Virus record (IMG/VR): IMGVR_UViG_3300029721_000031
Length of the DNA: 10,183 bases
From: a virus
Lineage: Duplodnaviria; Heunggongvirae; Uroviricota; Caudoviricetes
Direction: 5' to 3' (one strand)
Below the pieces are notes generated by a model. That model saw nothing but the letters and a program-made list of their open reading frames with translations, was not told the origin of the DNA and did not search any database. Below, piece by piece: positions 1,674 through 10,183 of this stretch (position 1 is the stretch's first letter; the number at the start of each line of letters is the position of its first letter). The position numbers and the translations under genes were made by a program.

Positions 1674-2309
1674 TTGTCGGTGTACCTCTCTCGTTTGCTC
1701 AGTTGTTCAGGAATATGGTGCNNNNNNNNNNNNNNNNNNNNNNNNNNNNNNNNNNNNNNNNNNNNNNNNNNNNNNNNNNNNNNNNACATCGCCCGGCTGC
1801 GCCGCTGACAACGGCACCTGATACAGCCCTGTGGCCTCCAGATTATCCAGATAGAGATTCTGACCGTTACGCCACCAGTCATCCCCGCGATGAAAATCCG
1901 GCATCTCAATTCCCGCCAGATGGTAAGCGTCCCGGAACAGCGTGTAACAGTCCGTTACCCCGTGCTCAAAGCGCCGCCCGGTGAGATGCGGCACACAGCG
2001 GAATTTATGAATCGCCCCCCGGCAGACCAGCCACCACGGCAAATCACTCTGTACCTGCAGCCGCCGGTCGGCCTCACTCAGCCAGGGCAGACCACCGGGG
2101 TGGCTGTGGACCAGCGCCACAATCTCTCCCTGCATTTCTGCACTCAGCCAGTCCTCCGGCGACATCCGGAAATACTCCTCCGGCTCACCGGAGATATTCA
2201 CGCAGGGAAAATATCTTTCCTCCTCCGGCGTTCTCACCACGAAGCCGCACGACTCCGCTGGCGCACATCGCCGGGCGTGCGCCAGAATCGCTGATTCTGT
2301 CTCTGTCAT
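1571..2309 (-). CDS. K: Tail assembly protein K (MPN/JAMM metalloprotease-like N-domain plus NlpC/P60-like C-domain), interrupted by an assembly gap
   Basis: N-terminal part (2309..1786) carries a JAMM-type motif HSHPGG...SEADRR and the Cys-containing DCYTLF segment. After the N-run the K C-terminus ...HHIPEQLSKRERYTDKWQRRTHSLWRHRAW... continues in a different frame (1721..1571). The ORF-track call 1707..2309 ending APYS is therefore a gap artifact. Confidence 0.8.
1722..1785. other. Assembly gap / masked region (64 N)
   Basis: Run of 64 n characters in the sequence. The reading frame of K differs on the two sides, so the gap length is not the true length of the missing sequence. Confidence 0.99.
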
Positions 2310-2314
2310 GGGAT

Positions 2315-3013
2315 TTACTGCGAAAGTTTGTTAATGGAAAGGAAGCTGCCAAAGTTGCCGACATTATTGCGAAACTTACAGCCACTCAGGCATTTGCTGC
2401 ATTTATCCTTCGTGATATCGGACGTCGGCTGGTCATATTCATCCGCGACCGCCGGACCGCTATAACCGCACTCATCGCCGCGATAGGTCCAGGTGCAGGT
2501 GTTGGCCAGCATGATACGTCCCGGAAAAACAGCGCCATCCGTTTCAGTCGGCGTGGACAGTACAAAAGAGGCACTGACCGCGCTCAGTTCGCTGCACTGC
2601 TCGATGCGCCAGCGGCTGATCACCTCCTGCTCCGGATCGGCTTCGCTGTTTCCGTTGACGAAGTTCACCGCATCCAGAAAGCGGGCGTAAACCTTACGCC
2701 GGACCACCGTTCCGCCGACCAGACTCTGCAGATCTTCCGCCATCCCGGTGATCATGCCGTGCAGGTTAGAGACCGCCAGTGTCGGACGGGCAGCACTGCC
2801 CTTGCCGTTCATCTCAAATCCACTCCCCTGAATGGGATAGGCCTGATACTGCCGACTCTGCCAGGTGACAGACTCACCTTTTTCGTTCTGCTCATTACAG
2901 AAAAAGTAGCGATCCCCGCCTACCTCGGTCAGGTCGATTTCCCAGAGCACCACGCTGGCCGACTGCTCCGCACGAATGCATTCATTCAGCGTTTCCTGTT
3001 GTATGTCCTGCAT
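2315..3013 (-). CDS. L: Minor tail protein L (232 aa)
   Basis: Translation MQDIQQETLNECIRAEQSASVVLWEIDLTEVGG...GNFGSFLSINKLSQ has the same length as lambda gpL and closely matches my recollection of it. The start codon overlaps the M stop (TGATG). Confidence 0.9.
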   Translation of the reverse strand: MQDIQQETLNECIRAEQSASVVLWEIDLTEVGGDRYFFCNEQNEKGESVTWQSRQYQAYPIQGSGFEMNGKGSAARPTLAVSNLHGMITGMAEDLQSLVGGTVVRRKVYARFLDAVNFVNGNSEADPEQEVISRWRIEQCSELSAVSASFVLSTPTETDGAVFPGRIMLANTCTWTYRGDECGYSGPAVADEYDQPTSDITKDKCSKCLSGCKFRNNVGNFGSFLSINKLSQ

Positions 3014-3312
3014 CAGATCACCACTTCGTCAAACTGACACGAAAAATCGGTATAGGTGATATGTTCTGTCGCTGACCACGTTCGACACACCACTCTGATT
3101 TTTCTGTTAATACCCGGCGGGCGCCAAAAAAAAGATTTATAGCCTTCATGCCGGGCTAAAAATTTTTCAAATGAATCACGTTCATTCGCCTCAACTTTGA
3201 AATCACAGGTGAAAACGCGCAGAGAATGATTAAGTCCATTTGGACTTCGTTGCTCATAACCATCGCCAAATCTTACAGTTTTTATCGATGGTTTATTTTC
3301 TGTTTTCATTCC
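3013..3312 (-). CDS. M: Minor tail protein M (about 99 aa from ATG at 3312; the ORF track extends to a GTG at 3351)
   Basis: MKTENKPSIKTVRFGDGYEQRSPNGLN... resembles lambda gpM (conserved VRFGDGY, KSF-W-PP segments). The ATG at 3312 is preceded by GAGGATGGA (Shine-Dalgarno). The alternative GTG at 3351 overlaps the tape measure stop and has no obvious RBS. Confidence 0.8.
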   Translation of the reverse strand, partial: GMKTENKPSIKTVRFGDGYEQRSPNGLNHSLRVFTCDFKVEANERDSFEKFLARHEGYKSFFWRPPGINRKIRVVCRTWSATEHITYTDFSCQFDEVVI

Positions 3313-3343
3313 ATCCTCTGGTAACCAGTGAAATTCTTCCGTA

Positions 3344-6300
3344 TTAGCCACTTAACATTCCCCCATCACGTCGCATATTTAACAGATTGCCCTGCACCCG
3401 CTGATCAACCATCCCCATAAGTGCTTTTATTGCCTGAGGGCCAATCTCTCCATTCTGGCCGTCATTTTGAATAGTGATTTGGTATACAGGGGCATAGGTA
3501 ATATCTCCGCCTCCATTACCACTTTTACTATTAACAGCTCTGACACCAAGAGAACCATCGGAAGTTCGTGTTAATGGCATAATGGCTTCCGGACCAGCCT
3601 CACCAAAAACACCAGCCCCTCTTGCAAAAGCAAAAAATTGCGGGGAATCATAAATACCGTTCGAATACGTGTTCAATGACGGAGACTCATAAACACCGCC
3701 CTTTGCATTCGGAATAAATTTACTAATAGCACTCCCGATAGTTCCTAAAATCCCCCCAGAAGAACTGTTACTAATGCTGTCGAAAATCCCAGTAATTGAA
3801 GCCTTTAATGCTATTCGACTAAGATCCGAAATCACGGAAGTAGCGAAAGAACGAAAATTTGCTTTGCCTGTCGTGACAAAATCACCCAGCGCATCGGTCA
3901 TTCCATCAAACATCTGAGTCGTGGTTGATTTTATCTGCTCACTGATATCCTTAGTGTCATCCAGCCAGTTATTGAATCCCTGGGAGGCACCACTAACCCA
4001 GTCTCCTGCCTGAATATCGAGCTGCTCGTTTTTCTGTCTGACAATTTCTTTTTCTCGTTCCAGAGCATCATTCAGAGCCTGCATTTTCTCCTGAAAAACA
4101 TGATTTGACATCCCACGGGATTTATCTGCATAGTCACGTTCAAGTTGCAGACGCTGATTGTTATATTCACGTTCAATCCGCAGTAATTCCTGCTGGCGTT
4201 GCTGATTTTTATCGCCAACCCCATAACCAGCAATCTGAATATCATACCCCTGTTGACGATTATCAATCGAAGCCTGCAATGAATCACGCCATGCAGCTAT
4301 TTCGGCTGATTCCTTGATTAGCCTGTTATTTTTTTCAATCGCAACATTTTTCTCCATCAACGCGGTTATTTCTTCCCGGTGTAAGAGAAGCGATTTCTGA
4401 TCCTTGGTTAATTTCGATGACGGTCGTGACTCCAGGTCGGCAATCTGCTGACGCCACTTAACCAGTTCCTGTTCAGAGGAACTTAATTTAACGGTTAATT
4501 CAGTTTGTGAACTTAGTAACGCATTCTGTTGATTCAGATGATCAATCATTCGTTGGGCAGCATCATCCGAATAACCTTTCGCCTTTGGTTGCTTTGGATC
4601 TTTATAACGCTCATTTATTTGAGCGATAAGATTATTATATTCTTCCTTTGAATACTGACTCTTTAGTTTTTCCAGTTTTGCAAGTTCACTAGCTCTCTGC
4701 TGCTCCCGGGTCTGATATTGTTTTGAAAAGGCATCTGCTCTCTGTCTGAGTTCAATTCCTTCCTGTTGTCGCTTGTTGTAATCGTTTATTGATGAATTTA
4801 GTACGTCCTGAGCAATTTTTTCTGCTTGAAGTACGCCCAATTGCTGCTTTAATCGTGCCAGCCTTTTATTTTGAGCTCCGCCATCTCCAATGCCACCTAA
4901 CCCGAAAACTCCGGGTCGGGTATTTTTTTCTATTTCATCAATTTGACGGAGAACATCTGAGATTTTTTGATCAAGGGAGGCCTCACGGCCAATATCCAGC
5001 ATGGAATCCCATGCCCATTTTGCGGAGTCTGCGACAGCTTTCCATGCAGTCTCAAGATAACCAAGATTTTCTTTAATCTGGTTGGTGCGCTGGATCATTG
5101 AGGATGAGTATGCTTCTGTCGCAATGCGGGCGGCCTCCTGCTGGTTCCCTTCATCCTGTAGCGCCTTAATCTGGTTATAAGTCGCAATTGTCAGAAAATG
5201 GTACTGATCATTAAGTTTTGATATGGCACTGACAGGATCCTTTGCAATTTCATTGAAGTCATTAACCAGTTGTTCGGTTGATATTCCTGTTACTTCGCTC
5301 GTTTTTACTATCGCTGTCGTCACTTGCTCCAGCGAACTGCTCGCTACCTTTCCCGAACGCACAAGCTGGTTTAATACTGCCGCCGCAGCGCCAGTTGTCG
5401 AATCAGCCGCATTCCCGGCACGTTGAACTATATCGGCCAATTGCCCGCTGGTTGTCCCCAACTGATTTCCGGTAAGAATAAGAGACTTATTAAATTCGTC
5501 CTGCTCCTGAGAGCCTTTATAGTAAGCCAGCCCTAAGACGCCAACGGCTGCTGCGGCCAGGGTAAAAGGATTAATTAATCCCAGCACATAAGAACCAACA
5601 CCTTTGATCGCCGGGCCAATCCCACCGAACATATCTTTTAGCTGGCCGCCCTGCTGCATTAACACCATAAAAGGCGACTGACCAGTGGACAACCCAACAA
5701 CAATATCCGTCATTTGTGCAGGCAACATGCGCATAGCAAAAGCCGTTTGTTTTGCCGACATTCCGGTTTTGCTTAATTGAGATTGAGTAACCTCAAGCTC
5801 ACTCCGCATAGCACGAAGTTTTCCAGAAAGTTCCTCATACATTTCAGGAGAGAGCATCCCCTTAGCTTTTGCTTCATTGAGCTGTTTCTGTTGTTCTACC
5901 AGACGATTAAAAGCAGTTCCGACAGGGTCAAGTTGAGCAATCAGACGTTGCAAAGCAGCAACCTGTTCATCATGCGCTTTTGCTGCTTCTCGCTCTGCCT
6001 GAGCCTCTCCGGTAAGCTCTCGCCGTGTTTCCTGTATTTTTCGGCTATAATTCTCAAACTGAGAACCATTTATTTTCCCGGATGCAAACGCAGCATTAAG
6101 TTCATCCTGCTGTTGTTCAAGATTTCTTAGCGCCGCAGCCAGAGGGTCGATCTTGTCCAGCATTCTTTGAAAGGCCTGAGTCTGCGCTTCCTGCTGGGCG
6201 GCAGCAAGTTTTCCGGCCTTCTCGGCTTCTCTCTGCGCTTGCGCAACCCCGCTCAATTCCTCTGTGGTTTCATTAAGTTTACGGACAAGAAATTCATATT

Positions 6301-6577
6301 CTTCTTTATCAATAAGCCCTTTATCGAAAAATTTCTTTAATTCAGAATAGCGTCGACCGACAGTATCAATTGCGGCACCAACTGGATCAATAGCTGCTTT
6401 TAATTTTGCGAGCGCGTTCTTCTCATCTTCTGTTGCCTTAGTCACTTTCCCTGCGCTATTTGCAGCAGTTTCCCCGGCCTGCGTCATTTTGACTAATGAG
6501 GAGGTCAGATTGTCAGCATTATTTTTTGCTCCAGTGCTATCAATAATTATTGCGAGACGCGAGGTTTGCTCTGCCAT
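3344..6577 (-). CDS. H: Tail tape measure protein (1077 aa), lambda H-like core with an N-terminal repeat extension
   Basis: Long coiled-coil-rich ORF. Segments [59 protein letters not shown], and the C-terminal [38 protein letters not shown] resemble lambda gpH as I recall it. It sits between G-T and M. Start ATG at 6577 with GGAG 9 nt upstream. Confidence 0.92.
5777..6391 (-). repeat. Three tandem in-frame repeats (~73-80 aa each) in the tape measure N-terminus
   Basis: Protein repeats begin IDPVGAAI (aa 63), IDPLAAAL (aa 143) and LDPVGTAF (aa 216). Each is followed by similar helical segments, e.g. [16 protein letters not shown] vs [16 protein letters not shown]. The corresponding DNA motifs (actggatcaatagctgc, agggtcgatcttgtcc, agggtcaagttgagc) are visible on the plus strand. 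Confidence 0.6.
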
Positions 6578-6600
6578 TTATTAAAACTCCAGACAACAAA

Positions 6601-6620
6601 AAGCCCACCGAAGTGGGTTT
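6601..6620 (-). terminator. Terminator-like hairpin (5-bp GC stem, UUCG tetraloop, U5 tract) 24 nt upstream of the tape measure start codon
   Basis: Minus-strand RNA reads AAACCCAC UUCG GUGGG CUUUUUGUUGU. It lies within a 163-nt non-coding spacer (6578..6740) between the T stop and the TMP start. Confidence 0.4.
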
Positions 6621-6740
6621 CAGGCGACATAATAGTAGATATAGCGATTACGAGGCCACGCAATGCTTTTCTCCAGGAGCATCATCGATTTAATTAAAGA
6701 CACCATCACATCTCTGTAACAGAGTGTACGTAATTAACAA

Positions 6741-7061
6741 CTACACACACTGCTCCTGAAAATACTGGTCATCCAGTGCAAAGATCACTGCTTCAAACTC
6801 ATCGCGCTCAATCAATACCGGATGAGTGGCTAAATATTCATTTATCTCTGTCAGAGATAAAGGCAAAGGCACCCCGGTCATTCCAGCATAACGTCGGGCA
6901 CGGGATATTACCGAATAGGCGTACAACAATTCCTTAAGCACCGGGTCTATTTCTGGTTCCGGTATCGGTGGCAACCTGAGTTTTTCTCGCTTCCATCTTG
7001 CCTTTTCCCCCCTTTCTCCCCCGAACTCCGATAACCACCGCTGGGCGGCTATGGCTTTTTT
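6741..7061 (-). CDS. T: T extension of the G-T fusion chaperone, reached by programmed -1 frameshift from G (no ATG of its own)
   Basis: The -1 frame relative to G is open from 7085 to the TAG at 6743..6741 and has no ATG start (the ORF track begins it at a TTG, 6974). A -1 slip at A_AAA_AAG would give ...DTIKK-AIAAQRWLSEFGGERGEKARWKREKLRLPPIPEPEIDPV...QEQCV, a G-T product of about 255 aa. Confidence 0.7.
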   Translation of the reverse strand, partial: KKAIAAQRWLSEFGGERGEKARWKREKLRLPPIPEPEIDPVLKELLYAYSVISRARRYAGMTGVPLPLSLTEINEYLATHPVLIERDEFEAVIFALDDQYFQEQCV

Positions 7062-7510
7062 ATCGTATCCTGCTTCTGCTGCTCTTTACCCTGGGCGATG
7101 CTGGCTGCTTCTGCAAGGATCTGCCAGTACAACTCTGGATTCTGCTTAAGCAGCGCGATCCCTCGTTCTGGCGTATATTCCAGTGCAACCTCAGCACCAT
7201 TAACCAGTTCACCAACCCCTTTCCAGTCTTTCAGCAGATAACGAGCAGCATTATCAATGAGTAAATCATCAACAGAATCTACCTCGGAAACCTTTGAAAT
7301 ATCAAACTCCTTCGTTCCGACGTGCAAACTGGCATCCATTTTCTCAATGTGACGACGGATTAATGCATTACGGGAGCGATACTGATCGTTATCGCTGCTT
7401 GCCACCAACAGTTTTAACCCGTCTATAGGTTTTAAGTCCTTCATTGGCGTAAACCAGCGTTCTCCACCGATGATAATTTTCTGATTAAGAATAAACATCC
7501 ATAACCTCAT
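7049..7510 (-). CDS. G: Tail assembly chaperone G (153 aa from ATG at 7510; alternative start ATG at 7498 gives MFILNQ...)
   Basis: Small acidic ORF immediately downstream of the major tail gene and upstream of the tape measure, i.e. the conserved G position. It ends ...QDTIKKP with a slippery heptamer spanning its last codons. Confidence 0.75.
   Translation of the reverse strand: MRLWMFILNQKIIIGGERWFTPMKDLKPIDGLKLLVASSDNDQYRSRNALIRRHIEKMDASLHVGTKEFDISKVSEVDSVDDLLIDNAARYLLKDWKGVGELVNGAEVALEYTPERGIALLKQNPELYWQILAEAASIAQGKEQQKQDTIKKP
7055..7061 (-). promoter_or_regulatory. Putative -1 ribosomal frameshift slippery heptamer A_AAA_AAG
   Basis: Minus-strand sequence gat acg ata aaa aag cca tag: the heptamer A AAA AAG occupies the last two Lys codons of G, one codon before the G stop. 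The same heptamer type is used by E. coli dnaX. Confidence 0.65.
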
Positions 7511-7519
7511 TCAATGCGT

Positions 7520-7546
7520 CCCCCTGTAGTGCAGTACCACAGGGGG
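7520..7546 (-). promoter_or_regulatory. Strong hairpin in the V-G intergenic region whose 3' arm overlaps the predicted G Shine-Dalgarno
   Basis: Inverted repeat CCCCCTGT(7520..7527) / ACAGGGGG(7539..7546). On the transcript the stem can extend to ~11 bp with one G-U pair and a 5-nt loop. The 3' arm ACAGGGGG ends 9 nt before ATG 7510. No U-tract follows, so it is not a canonical terminator. Confidence 0.45.
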
Positions 7547-7558
7547 AATAACGGAAAA

Positions 7559-8521
7559 TCAACTAATCGCATCAGCACTGGCTTTTGCGATCACGGCAGT
7601 CGGGGAGCATTTTTTTCTGGTTATCGTAGGTGCTTCATCTGCTGCGGTAATGCTCAATTGAACCTGGATAATGTCAGTATTACCCCCATCAGGCCATTCA
7701 CCTGACACCTGAACCTTCGGGAAACTGAAAGTGTATGCCCCCTCTCCATTCGAAAGCGTGAAGCTGAACGGAACTGTTTCTCCAGTCAGTGTTTTACTCC
7801 AGATTTCCCACGCGGCTTTAGACCATGAAAGCGTCACCGTACCGGACGGTGTAAAAGTAGTCGGAATATTTGCTCCTGCATAAGGCGAGCCAGTCCCGAT
7901 ACAACGCTGTGTCTGGAGTTTGTTATCGAACTGAATATCAAAACTGTCGATACAAAAACCGTTACCTCCGGCAACACCATTCAGGCTTACTGCTGAAACC
8001 GCCTTAAACGAATAGCGTAACTTTCCTGCACTATCCACAGGTTCGCCTTTGATAAAATTCGTATCATCGGCCTTTGATTCCCAGCCCAGCCCGGCAAAGG
8101 TTACGGTCGCTGTAATATCGCCGTCGTTAGGGATCTGCATTTTCCATGAGCCAACCTGCGCTCCTCTGACGACAGAGGCAATTCCGACATCGGACGCATA
8201 GGTCGCCAGAGAAAATGTTATTCGCTCATTCCCCATTGTCAGAGAATCGCCTGACCATTCCGCGCCGAAACAGGATGCAAGAAAATCATCATGTTGACCC
8301 CAGCGAAATTTGGTACCAACATCACCGCCGACATCCACAGTGCCAGGCGTCGCCCCCTGAGCCATCCGGGAGCCACCAATCTCATTATTTTCGCCTTTAT
8401 TCTGGGTGGGTTTTACTCCCCAGCTTGTGCGTTTTAATAAACTCCAGTCACCACTTGCTGGCGTAGTGCCTGCAACTGTCTCCCGGATAAATGCCGAGAT
8501 AACCTTTGCACCTGAACTCAC
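7559..8521 (-). CDS. V: Major tail (tube) protein, V-like (320 aa)
   Basis: Position immediately upstream of G/G-T. Gly/Thr/Ser-rich beta-type composition typical of tail tube proteins. GTG start at 8521 preceded by TAGGAGG with a 5-nt spacer. The family assignment is by synteny and composition, not a verified motif. Confidence 0.75.
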   Translation of the reverse strand: MSSGAKVISAFIRETVAGTTPASGDWSLLKRTSWGVKPTQNKGENNEIGGSRMAQGATPGTVDVGGDVGTKFRWGQHDDFLASCFGAEWSGDSLTMGNERITFSLATYASDVGIASVVRGAQVGSWKMQIPNDGDITATVTFAGLGWESKADDTNFIKGEPVDSAGKLRYSFKAVSAVSLNGVAGGNGFCIDSFDIQFDNKLQTQRCIGTGSPYAGANIPTTFTPSGTVTLSWSKAAWEIWSKTLTGETVPFSFTLSNGEGAYTFSFPKVQVSGEWPDGGNTDIIQVQLSITAADEAPTITRKKCSPTAVIAKASADAIS

Positions 8522-8547
8522 AGGAGCCTCCTATGTCATTAATTGCG

Positions 8548-8940
8548 CTAGAGCGCGCGATATGGAATTTGAAGATTAAGCTGGAACCAGCCATTCTTTT
8601 CGCCGACGGCTATTGAGGAAACAGCCTGGTAACTGAGACGATCGTCATCCTGAAACTCAAACAGTTCCCGCAATTTATCGGCTGTCTCAGTAATGAGTTT
8701 TGAACCAGAACCTGCGGGGACAAATAACTGAATAATGATTATCCCCGTGCGATAAACAACCGGCCCCGCGCCAATTTCATTAACTCCAGCTTGCCCGGGA
8801 ATATTACTTAACCGCGCCCAGATTAACTTACCGGAAGGATCGAACGTTGGCCCGTTCGGATACAATACGTCTTTTCCATCAATAATCGTCTGTGCCGTCA
8901 TTCTGGAAATAACCGTATTTCTGATTTCAGTAAACTTCAT
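8548..8940 (-). CDS. Tail terminator / tail completion protein (gpU-like role), 130 aa
   Basis: Size and position (directly upstream of the major tail gene) match the lambda U / siphovirus tail terminator slot. Start overlaps the upstream stop by 4 nt (ATGA). No specific motif verified. Confidence 0.55.
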   Translation of the reverse strand: MKFTEIRNTVISRMTAQTIIDGKDVLYPNGPTFDPSGKLIWARLSNIPGQAGVNEIGAGPVVYRTGIIIIQLFVPAGSGSKLITETADKLRELFEFQDDDRLSYQAVSSIAVGEKNGWFQLNLQIPYRAL

Positions 8941-9317
8941 TTGTAAGCCTGTAAAACACCATGAAAAGCGTTGGCATACACGCCAGTTGGCGCTTGTTGT
9001 GAATGACCGTTTTCAAGAGCCTCTGCATAAGGAAGGTTATTCTGGATATAAATAACCCCGTAATTTGCAGCTTTCGAAATAACCCCGATCCCACGCTGAA
9101 CAGCAATCGTACCGTTCGGATCCACGTTATCAGATATACCAAAATCGGGATGCTGTAACGACACCAGGTTGTTATTTCTGAAACGTCCGGTATCAACCGG
9201 AGCAGCAATATCAATAGCAGTAAGAATCTGAATAGCGATGTAGCGAATCTTCAGCCCTACATCTTCCTCAATCATCCCGGCAAATATTGACGGTTCTATA
9301 TCCCATGCCTTTGCCAT
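8937..9317 (-). CDS. HK97 gp10-family-like tail component / head-tail joining protein, 126 aa
   Basis: Contains PVDTGRFRNNN, resembling the DTGxLRxS motif I recall for the HK97 gp10-like family. Adjacent to and coupled with the neighbouring small structural genes. Confidence 0.55.
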   Translation of the reverse strand: MAKAWDIEPSIFAGMIEEDVGLKIRYIAIQILTAIDIAAPVDTGRFRNNNLVSLQHPDFGISDNVDPNGTIAVQRGIGVISKAANYGVIYIQNNLPYAEALENGHSQQAPTGVYANAFHGVLQAYK

Positions 9318-9701
9318 TTACGCTCTCCTTAACTGGATAGAGTAAACTGATGCGGAAGGATCTACACTTGCTGTAATTACCTCGTATCGTTGTAACTGCC
9401 TTGATACAGGATCATAAATCTCAATAATATGGTCGACAGCTGGTTTATCCGTAACCTCGCATACCAGAGCGGTTAATTTAAGGTCACCATGCAAAATATT
9501 AATCCCATCAATTCTGCCCAGCTTATAACGTGTCAACACGCCTCGCCCGGTATAGATTGCGGTGGATTCGCCGCCAGTTTCCGTCACAGGATCCCAGTGC
9601 CGGTGCGTAACGTAAGAACCAGAAAAATCACTCACGGCGTCCGCTAAATCCTCATCAAAAGCAGCGGCAACCTCTGACTGAATCTCTTCACGAAGCCCCA
9701 T
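9318..9701 (-). CDS. Head-tail adaptor / head closure-like protein, 127 aa
   Basis: Small ORF in the head-tail connector gene block. Its ATG shares one nucleotide with the upstream stop (TAATG). Function assigned by synteny only. Confidence 0.5.
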   Translation of the reverse strand: MGLREEIQSEVAAAFDEDLADAVSDFSGSYVTHRHWDPVTETGGESTAIYTGRGVLTRYKLGRIDGINILHGDLKLTALVCEVTDKPAVDHIIEIYDPVSRQLQRYEVITASVDPSASVYSIQLRRA

Positions 9702-10087
9702 TATCCCCCCCTCACAACCCTGACTTGTGAGCGACTAAGTCCGTACTGTTTCAGCAGTGCTATCGCAAGCTGTAAATCGGGTTCAAGCAATGCAGTGCTG
9801 TTTGCTGGCAACTCAGAAAATGATTTCGATACACTGACCCCGTCAGCCGACACGGCTTTACTGATAACAACGCCAGAATCATTTTTCTGCTGAAACAACT
9901 TACCGAATGAGGCAATTCTGGCTGCATATGCTCCCGCAAGTTTTACCTCTTCCGGAATACGGGATGGGTTAATTTTCAGGTTGAAGCCATTAAGCCAGGC
10001 ATTAGCCATTAAAACAGCTTTATTTTTAGCGTTCTCACTCGTCCAGGCGTTCCCAAACGCATTATCAACGTCATCACAGGTCACGTA
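9701..10087 (-). pseudogene. Head-tail connector-stage structural gene whose 5' end abuts the IS629 terminus; either 5'-truncated or cut off from its RBS and promoter
   Basis: Open frame runs right up to the IS boundary (Y-V-T-C-D-D-V-D-N-A-F-G-N-A-W...). The first possible start in phage DNA is a GTG at 10084..10082, only 3 nt from the IS end. The ORF-track N-terminus MTDFGGKTSIFSHPVYLFLRKFSLQDSRGGS is read-through into IS DNA. Confidence 0.5.
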
Positions 10088-10183
10088 TGAACCGCCCCGG
10101 GAATCCTGGAGACTAAACTTCCTGAGAAAGAGGTAAACAGGATGACTAAAAATACTCGTTTTTCCCCCGAAGTCCGTCAACGG
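10088..10183 (+). mobile_element. Left end of an IS629-like IS3-family insertion sequence (terminal inverted repeat starting TGAACCGCCCCGGG...), continuing beyond the window
   Basis: Sequence TGAACCGCCCCGGGAATCCTGGAGACTAAACTTCCTGAGAAAGAGGTAAACAGGATGACTAAAAATACTCG matches my recollection of the IS629 left terminus. It shows the IS3-family TG... end and an orfA start with RBS GAGG. Confidence 0.85.
10142..10183 (+). CDS. IS629-like transposase OrfA, first 14 codons (MTKNTRFSPEVRQR...), partial
   Basis: ATG at 10142 with GAGG 9 nt upstream. The N-terminal peptide MTKNTRFSPEVRQR matches the IS629/IS3-family OrfA N-terminus as I recall it. Confidence 0.85.
   Translation, partial: MTKNTRFSPEVRQR

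Follow-up and report, generated by a model that had tools for sequence, protein, structure and literature searches.

The question raised by this locus is whether the insertion sequence (IS) that adjoins the rightmost structural gene of a prophage has disabled that gene and, with it, the assembly of virions. The window, i.e., the whole stretch of DNA that was analyzed, is 10,183 nucleotides long and comes from IMG/VR virus record IMGVR_UViG_3300029721_000031. All long open reading frames (ORFs) in the window are on the - strand, and together they form the neck and tail module of a lambdoid siphophage (Table 1). An earlier note on this DNA, made from its letters alone, had placed an IS3-family terminus at 10088 next to a phage gene whose frame is still open there, and had taken the prophage as likely defective. 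The observation itself was confirmed in every detail that is visible within the window, while what the insertion means for the prophage is a matter of graded probability.

Table 1. Coordinates of the features found in the window.
Feature	Position	Strand	Details
Partial J gene, then I, K, L, M		-	Tail genes
Tape measure, 1077 aa	3344..6577	-	PF06791, PF24622, PF09718
Tail assembly chaperone pair, YdaY-family G + GT	6741..7510	-	phrog_313; PF23812 weak
Tail tube	7559..8521	-	PF18906, 1.9e-32
Tail terminator	8548..8940	-	PF13554; phrog_179, 9.7e-41
Tail completion / Neck1	8937..9317	-	phrog_169, 2.6e-55
Head closure (Hc1)	9318..9701	-	phrog_161, 1.5e-28; ATG overlaps the adaptor stop
Adaptor (Ad1) remainder	9701..10087	-	Codons 4-131 and stop; lacks codons 1-3 and the Shine-Dalgarno (SD) sequence
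GTG, internal codon 5 (Val)	10082..10084	-	Only nearby candidate restart; 3 nt from the IS end
GTA, probable left copy of the 3-bp target-site duplication	10085..10087		Codon 4 (TAC on the - strand); adjoins the IS end
IS629-type IS3-family left end (IRL)	10088..10183	+	Terminal TGAACCGCCCCGGG at 10088; same ends at unrelated sites
SD-like GGGGCGG	10091..10098	-	Within the IS terminal repeat (outward reading); GTG follows after about 6 nt
orfA ATG	10142	+	Window ends 14 codons in

The break in the phage sequence and the adjoining IS629-type element

In the search for relatives, 723 genomes covered at least 80% of the query. Positions 1786-10087 were 99.96% identical to a prophage of Escherichia coli TUM14771, with 3 mismatches and no gaps over 8302 nt, and 99.92% identical to GenBank record ON470614. 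In all uninterrupted relatives listed, the homology ended at position 10087 of the window. On the + strand, the window reads GTCATCACAGGTCACGTA up to this point and TGAACCGCCCCGGGAATCC beyond it (TGAACCGCCCCGGGAATCCTGG in a longer reading), and an uninterrupted relative reads GTCACGTA followed by AGTGATCATGTG at the same place (AGTGATCATGTGTTACTCCTGAG in a longer reading). The break is thus at 10087/10088, and the terminus that had been placed at 10088 is borne out by the end of homology on one side and by an IS629-type left end on the other. In the remaining 8.3 kb, the neck and tail genes had the same length and reading frame as in uninterrupted prophages. Given that the ON470xxx "phage" records are PHASTER predictions from genome assemblies, with no isolated virions, the "intact" references of this study are uninterrupted prophages whose viability is unproven, and GenBank "phage" records were rejected as proof that intact relatives form virions.

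One NCBI contig, AARIRH010000087.1 of GCA_011970855.1, was 100% identical to positions 1786-10084 of the window. It ends with the GTG, leaving 3 nt to the IS junction, and the window reaches 96 nt into the IS. The 127-aa product that begins at this GTG was also found on this contig only, which added nothing to the right of the junction.

Positions 10088-10183 matched IS3-family copies across E. coli (6132 records). The first 60 nt of this part (10088-10147) were identical to the IS ends found at yeeJ, flgE, and iucD, all of which start with the same TGAACC. The full copy of the isoform at yeeJ is 1310 bp long, possesses inverted ends, is flanked by a 3-bp target-site duplication of GTC, and differs by 1 base from the 96 nt in the window. 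Similar to the known IS629-type left end, the terminal inverted repeat of the window starts with 5'-TG. In the 1310-bp reference copy, orfA matches HTH_Tnp_1 and a programmed frameshift is annotated. Judged by these sequence matches, the element is of the IS629 type, and a chance match is ruled out. It shares its terminal sequence and the start of orfA with the 1310-bp copies of IS629 in prophages of E. coli and Shigella, IS1203 and IS3411 being treated as isoforms of IS629 (PMC3271280). Because the ATG of orfA is on the + strand, the IS is oriented opposite to the phage late genes.

The duplications made by IS629 are 3-4 bp long, and 62% of the IS629 copies in O157 genomes lie within prophages or prophage-like elements (PMC3271280). 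The element studied here, of which the window holds the first 96 nt, is also in a prophage, the commonest setting of IS629. Its exact site was absent from 5426 complete E. coli genomes. The exact 41-nt left junction was not found in genome_contigs, a 26-nt left junction was not found in metagenome_contigs, and exact look-ups of IS-fused ORF products returned none.

The native start of the interrupted gene and its role as head-to-tail adaptor

In uninterrupted prophages, the gene reads CTCAGGAGTAACAC ATG ATC ACT TAC GTG ACC on the - strand, where an AGGAG SD sequence is followed by 6 nt and the ATG, and its product begins with M-I-T-Y-V-T. All full-length homologs, down to 47% identity, possess an N-terminal M-x-T-Y/F-V/I-T with an aromatic residue at position 4. 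The conservation of this motif identifies the ATG, which is 12 nt upstream of the GTG, as the real start and the GTG as internal codon 5. The IS was inserted between codons 4 and 5 of the gene, and the native AGGAG SD sequence and the codons ATG-ATC-ACT are detached from the coding sequence. Whether the gene had lost its 5' portion or had been cut off from its signals was left as two options in the earlier note; both apply, as codons 1-3 and the AGGAG SD sequence were displaced together. The alignment of 9701..10087 to intact homologs that it called for showed that codons 1-3 are missing and that the intact start is ATG. The GTG was found where it had been described (10084-10082, with 3 nt between it and the IS end), and no homolog that starts at the position of this GTG, the case that would have spoken against a truncation, was found in the homolog search.

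The - strand frame is open from 9701 to the end of the window. For the ORF that enters the IS, the only possible start is a TTG at 10180, and in the closest full-length copy of the isoform this frame is open to about 10222 only. The GTG is the only realistic restart codon. The duplex energy of the GGGGCGG motif with the 3' end of 16S rRNA, a computed value only, was -7.2 kcal/mol, compared to -6.9 kcal/mol for the native AGGAG. Because this SD-like motif precedes the GTG, some translation of a protein without the four conserved residues may occur.

The interrupted gene was identified as that of the head-to-tail adaptor by its PHROG profile, the fold of its model and the gene order taken together. 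In tailed phages, the adaptor binds the portal once the DNA is packaged and lets the tail attach. Intact copies in uninterrupted prophages encode 131 amino acid residues, of which residues 2-130 aligned to positions 1-127 of the 128 positions of PHROG 493 (phrog_493), "head-tail adaptor Ad1," with an E value of 1.1e-47. No curated Pfam head-tail connector family was matched, and the sole Pfam match was to PF20557 (DnaT_2), whose 19.3 bits were below the cut-off of 27. Single-sequence and profile searches of solved structures with the adaptor gave nothing significant, for which reason a fold comparison was needed. An AlphaFold model built from 29 homologs had a moderate mean pLDDT of 63.5, with about 80 for residues 1-65. 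The predicted fold was nearest to those of Mu gpJ and HK97 gp6 and agreed with an adaptor fold. Different from the adaptors HK97 gp6, SPP1 gp15, and Mu gpJ, the protein has no significant sequence match to any solved structure. In the relatives, the genes follow the order of capsid, a 58-aa gene, adaptor, Hc1, Ne1 (tail completion), terminator, and tube, and the head genes thus lie to the right, as had been expected. In public databases, members of the family go by the names "protein singed" or "DnaT-like ssDNA-binding protein" (PF20557). These names look misleading in view of the head-to-tail adaptor indicated by PHROG profile, gene order and fold comparison alike.

Expected effects on virion assembly and alternative readings

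The explanation that we favor, to which we assign a probability of about 0.72 as a whole, is a simple IS629-type insertion in the adaptor gene of a Rac-type prophage that cuts the supply of adaptor and, with it, virion assembly. In this explanation, an element of 1310 bp, the length of full copies, would have inserted after adaptor codon 4 with its transposase gene opposite to the late genes. With a duplication of GTA, the far side of a simple insertion would read ATG ATC ACT TAC TGA. Translation from the native ATG would yield M-I-T-Y before it terminates at the TGA that the IS end supplies, some 1.3 kb upstream of what remains of the gene. Adaptor, now without the four conserved residues at its N-terminus, would then be made from the internal GTG only, weakly or not at all. 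A shortage of adaptor would leave filled heads neither closed nor joined to tails, and infectious particles would fall sharply. At the right junction predicted for such an insertion, the right end of the IS would join GTA-AGTGATCATGTGTTACTCC, in which the duplication precedes the adaptor start and then the 58-aa gene. That the insertion is simple has been assumed, not shown, since the window includes neither the right IS end nor the second copy of the duplication nor the head genes; by analogy with strain LR-71-1, a simple insertion is the most likely case.

In the 5426 complete E. coli genomes, only LR-71-1 (NZ_AP027599.1, locus 7089-8400) has an IS within a few bp of the site. There, an IS1203-isoform interrupts the same adaptor gene in the same orientation 2 bp away, with a target-site duplication of AAG. 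The GTG is likewise the first usable start, from which PGAP calls a 127-aa product. The insertion of LR-71-1 comes after GTAAG and that of the window after GTA; the two IS isoforms differ at 3 of the 96 visible nt; and the backbone of LR-71-1 is 99.1% identical over 7850-10183 (IS end included), whereas that of TUM14771 is 99.96% identical over 1786-10087. Given that position, isoform and backbone all differ, the insertion in LR-71-1 most likely arose independently. Its surroundings are a prophage remnant next to rfb genes, in which IS26 also cuts the tube gene.

Two insertions in the same orientation and 2 bp apart hint at a local preference, and are too few to show one. A preference for a target sequence was also considered. 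In the junction search, alignments at other IS copies extended 20-30 nt into the phage flank; the flanks showed only scattered short coincidences (such as "cgtcatcac") among thousands of IS sites, which were rejected as chance. The excision of IS629 is reported to be promoted by IEE (10.1101/2023.06.07.543989). It is conceivable, although very improbable, that the adaptor start is a preferred landing site of IS629 and that the IS, by supplying an SD sequence, acts as a reversible dimmer of virion production that is undone by excision, e.g., with IEE. If so, the production of adaptor would be turned down, not off, and the insertion would be no simple knock-out.

The simple insertion was weighed against other readings of the same junction. 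The IS may instead mark the edge of an IS-mediated deletion or rearrangement, with DNA other than the adaptor start and the head genes on its right, the prophage being a tail-module remnant. We regard this as unlikely, and it remains a real alternative because of TB354 (locus 3819-6831), in which an IS of the same family adjoins a capsid gene without its N-terminus. The capsid gene is followed directly by a terminase fragment and then IS1; no portal, minor head or scaffold gene is left, and the head module was lost through IS activity. In addition, the prophage of the same type in LR-71-1 was cut by IS26, and matching duplications were found at only 21 of 47 IS629 sites (PMC3271280). A search of genome_contigs, the single collection examined for this purpose, did not turn up the predicted right junction with either a 3-bp or a 4-bp duplication. 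This missing junction is uninformative, however, because the source assembly is itself outside the searched collections. Against a deletion, the nearest comparable event, 2 bp away in LR-71-1, is a simple insertion with a duplication of AAG and with the head genes intact to the right. That the junction is an assembly artifact, in which a chimeric contig end fuses the phage to a repeated IS, is barely credible. A run of 64 N at 1722-1785 and an end 96 nt into a multi-copy repeat are typical of draft assemblies, and the NCBI contig, which is otherwise identical, breaks off 3 nt from the junction. The join, however, coincides to the base with the canonical IS terminus, as at other insertion sites, which is unexpected for a chimera, and a contig break at the junction is what a repeat there would cause.

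The insertion might also be nearly harmless, with a working adaptor made from the GTG by means of the SD-like motif of the IS, transcriptional read-through and infectious particles as the outcome. The position of GGGGCGG about 6 nt before the GTG and its computed energy, which is similar to that of the native SD sequence, are consistent with this possibility, as are a Q-type antiterminator in the relatives, an IS antisense strand without strong terminators, and intact genes throughout the region downstream of the insertion. However, GTG is a weaker start codon than ATG, and the G-rich motif is part of a repeat (CCCGGGG) that is GC-rich, palindromic and possibly folded. Moreover, the four residues that would be lost belong to the motif with an aromatic position 4 that is conserved in all full-length homologs down to 47% identity, and the homolog search returned none that starts at the position of the GTG. 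On balance, we consider a nearly harmless insertion to be distinctly unlikely. Under the simple insertion that cuts the adaptor supply, virion assembly is probably crippled, which is not proven. The defectiveness of the prophage proposed in the earlier note thus stands as a plausible consequence of the truncation; as a fact it is undemonstrated, with an SD-like motif before the GTG and the rest of the module undamaged.

A further part of that proposal, that the IS would be polar on the tail genes, was probably overstated. The relatives encode a match to Phage_antitermQ (PF06530, 27.4 bits with a cut-off of 26) as well as DUF1133. In lambda, neither intrinsic nor Rho-dependent terminators stop RNA polymerase that Q has modified, and transcriptional polarity on the tail genes is therefore probably minor. 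Terminator-like sites on the antisense strand of the IS did not exceed chance, two weak ones being found, and a scan of both strands of the IS gave 3 sites, compared to a mean of 1.3 (sd 1.3) in shuffled sequences. No outward sigma-70-like promoter was found in the IS end. By analogy with lambda, the IS probably has little effect on how the tail genes are transcribed. The stop of the adaptor gene overlaps the start of the head closure gene (TAATG), whose own SD sequence has a computed energy of -11.8 kcal/mol. Because the head closure gene possesses this strong SD sequence of its own, the adaptor itself is expected to suffer the main damage.

Between the chaperone genes and the tape measure gene, a gap of 160 nt in the late operon contains a terminator-like hairpin (6617-6604, - strand), CCCAC-TTCG-GTGGG and then CTTTTTGTTG. 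As evidence of antitermination this hairpin was dropped, its folding energy having a z of -0.39 relative to shuffled sequences.

Damage to prophages by IS insertion is ordinary, well documented and already known. The locus is one more case of prophage decay by IS elements, with little weight beyond annotation. Its proper annotation is a head-to-tail adaptor gene of a Rac-type prophage that IS629 has interrupted, rather than an intact 127-aa "protein singed." The practical value of the insertion is that of a strain marker. It also calls for caution, as a prophage scored as intact by its gene content may fail at head-tail joining.

The neck and tail module of a Rac-type prophage

The relatives ON470614 and TUM14771 carry integrase, ydaQ, ralR, recT, recE (annotated as exodeoxyribonuclease VIII), racC, kil, sieB, trkG, and ydaY. 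Since these records, which are 99.9% identical to the window, carry markers of Rac, the element in the window is considered a full-length relative of the Rac prophage. Similar to Rac of E. coli K-12, the near-identical relatives of the window have the Rac markers, beside the same tail module. Rac of K-12 has lost most of its structural genes. Different from it, the window holds the full neck and tail module, the tail and neck being the part of the prophage that is visible.

The 64 N at 1722-1785 fall in tail gene K, where the relatives and the otherwise identical NCBI contig have 69 real bases. A mutation that splits gene K was rejected, as the split in the ORF list reflects these 64 N (masking or gap). 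In the chaperone region, a slippery A_AAA_AAG (AAAAAAG) was observed at 7061-7055 on the - strand, just before the stop of the ORF for the YdaY-family chaperone. A simulated -1 shift yielded a 256-aa fusion that reaches 6741, the usual G/GT arrangement, and public annotations give the parts of this chaperone as separate genes (YdaY and a hypothetical protein).
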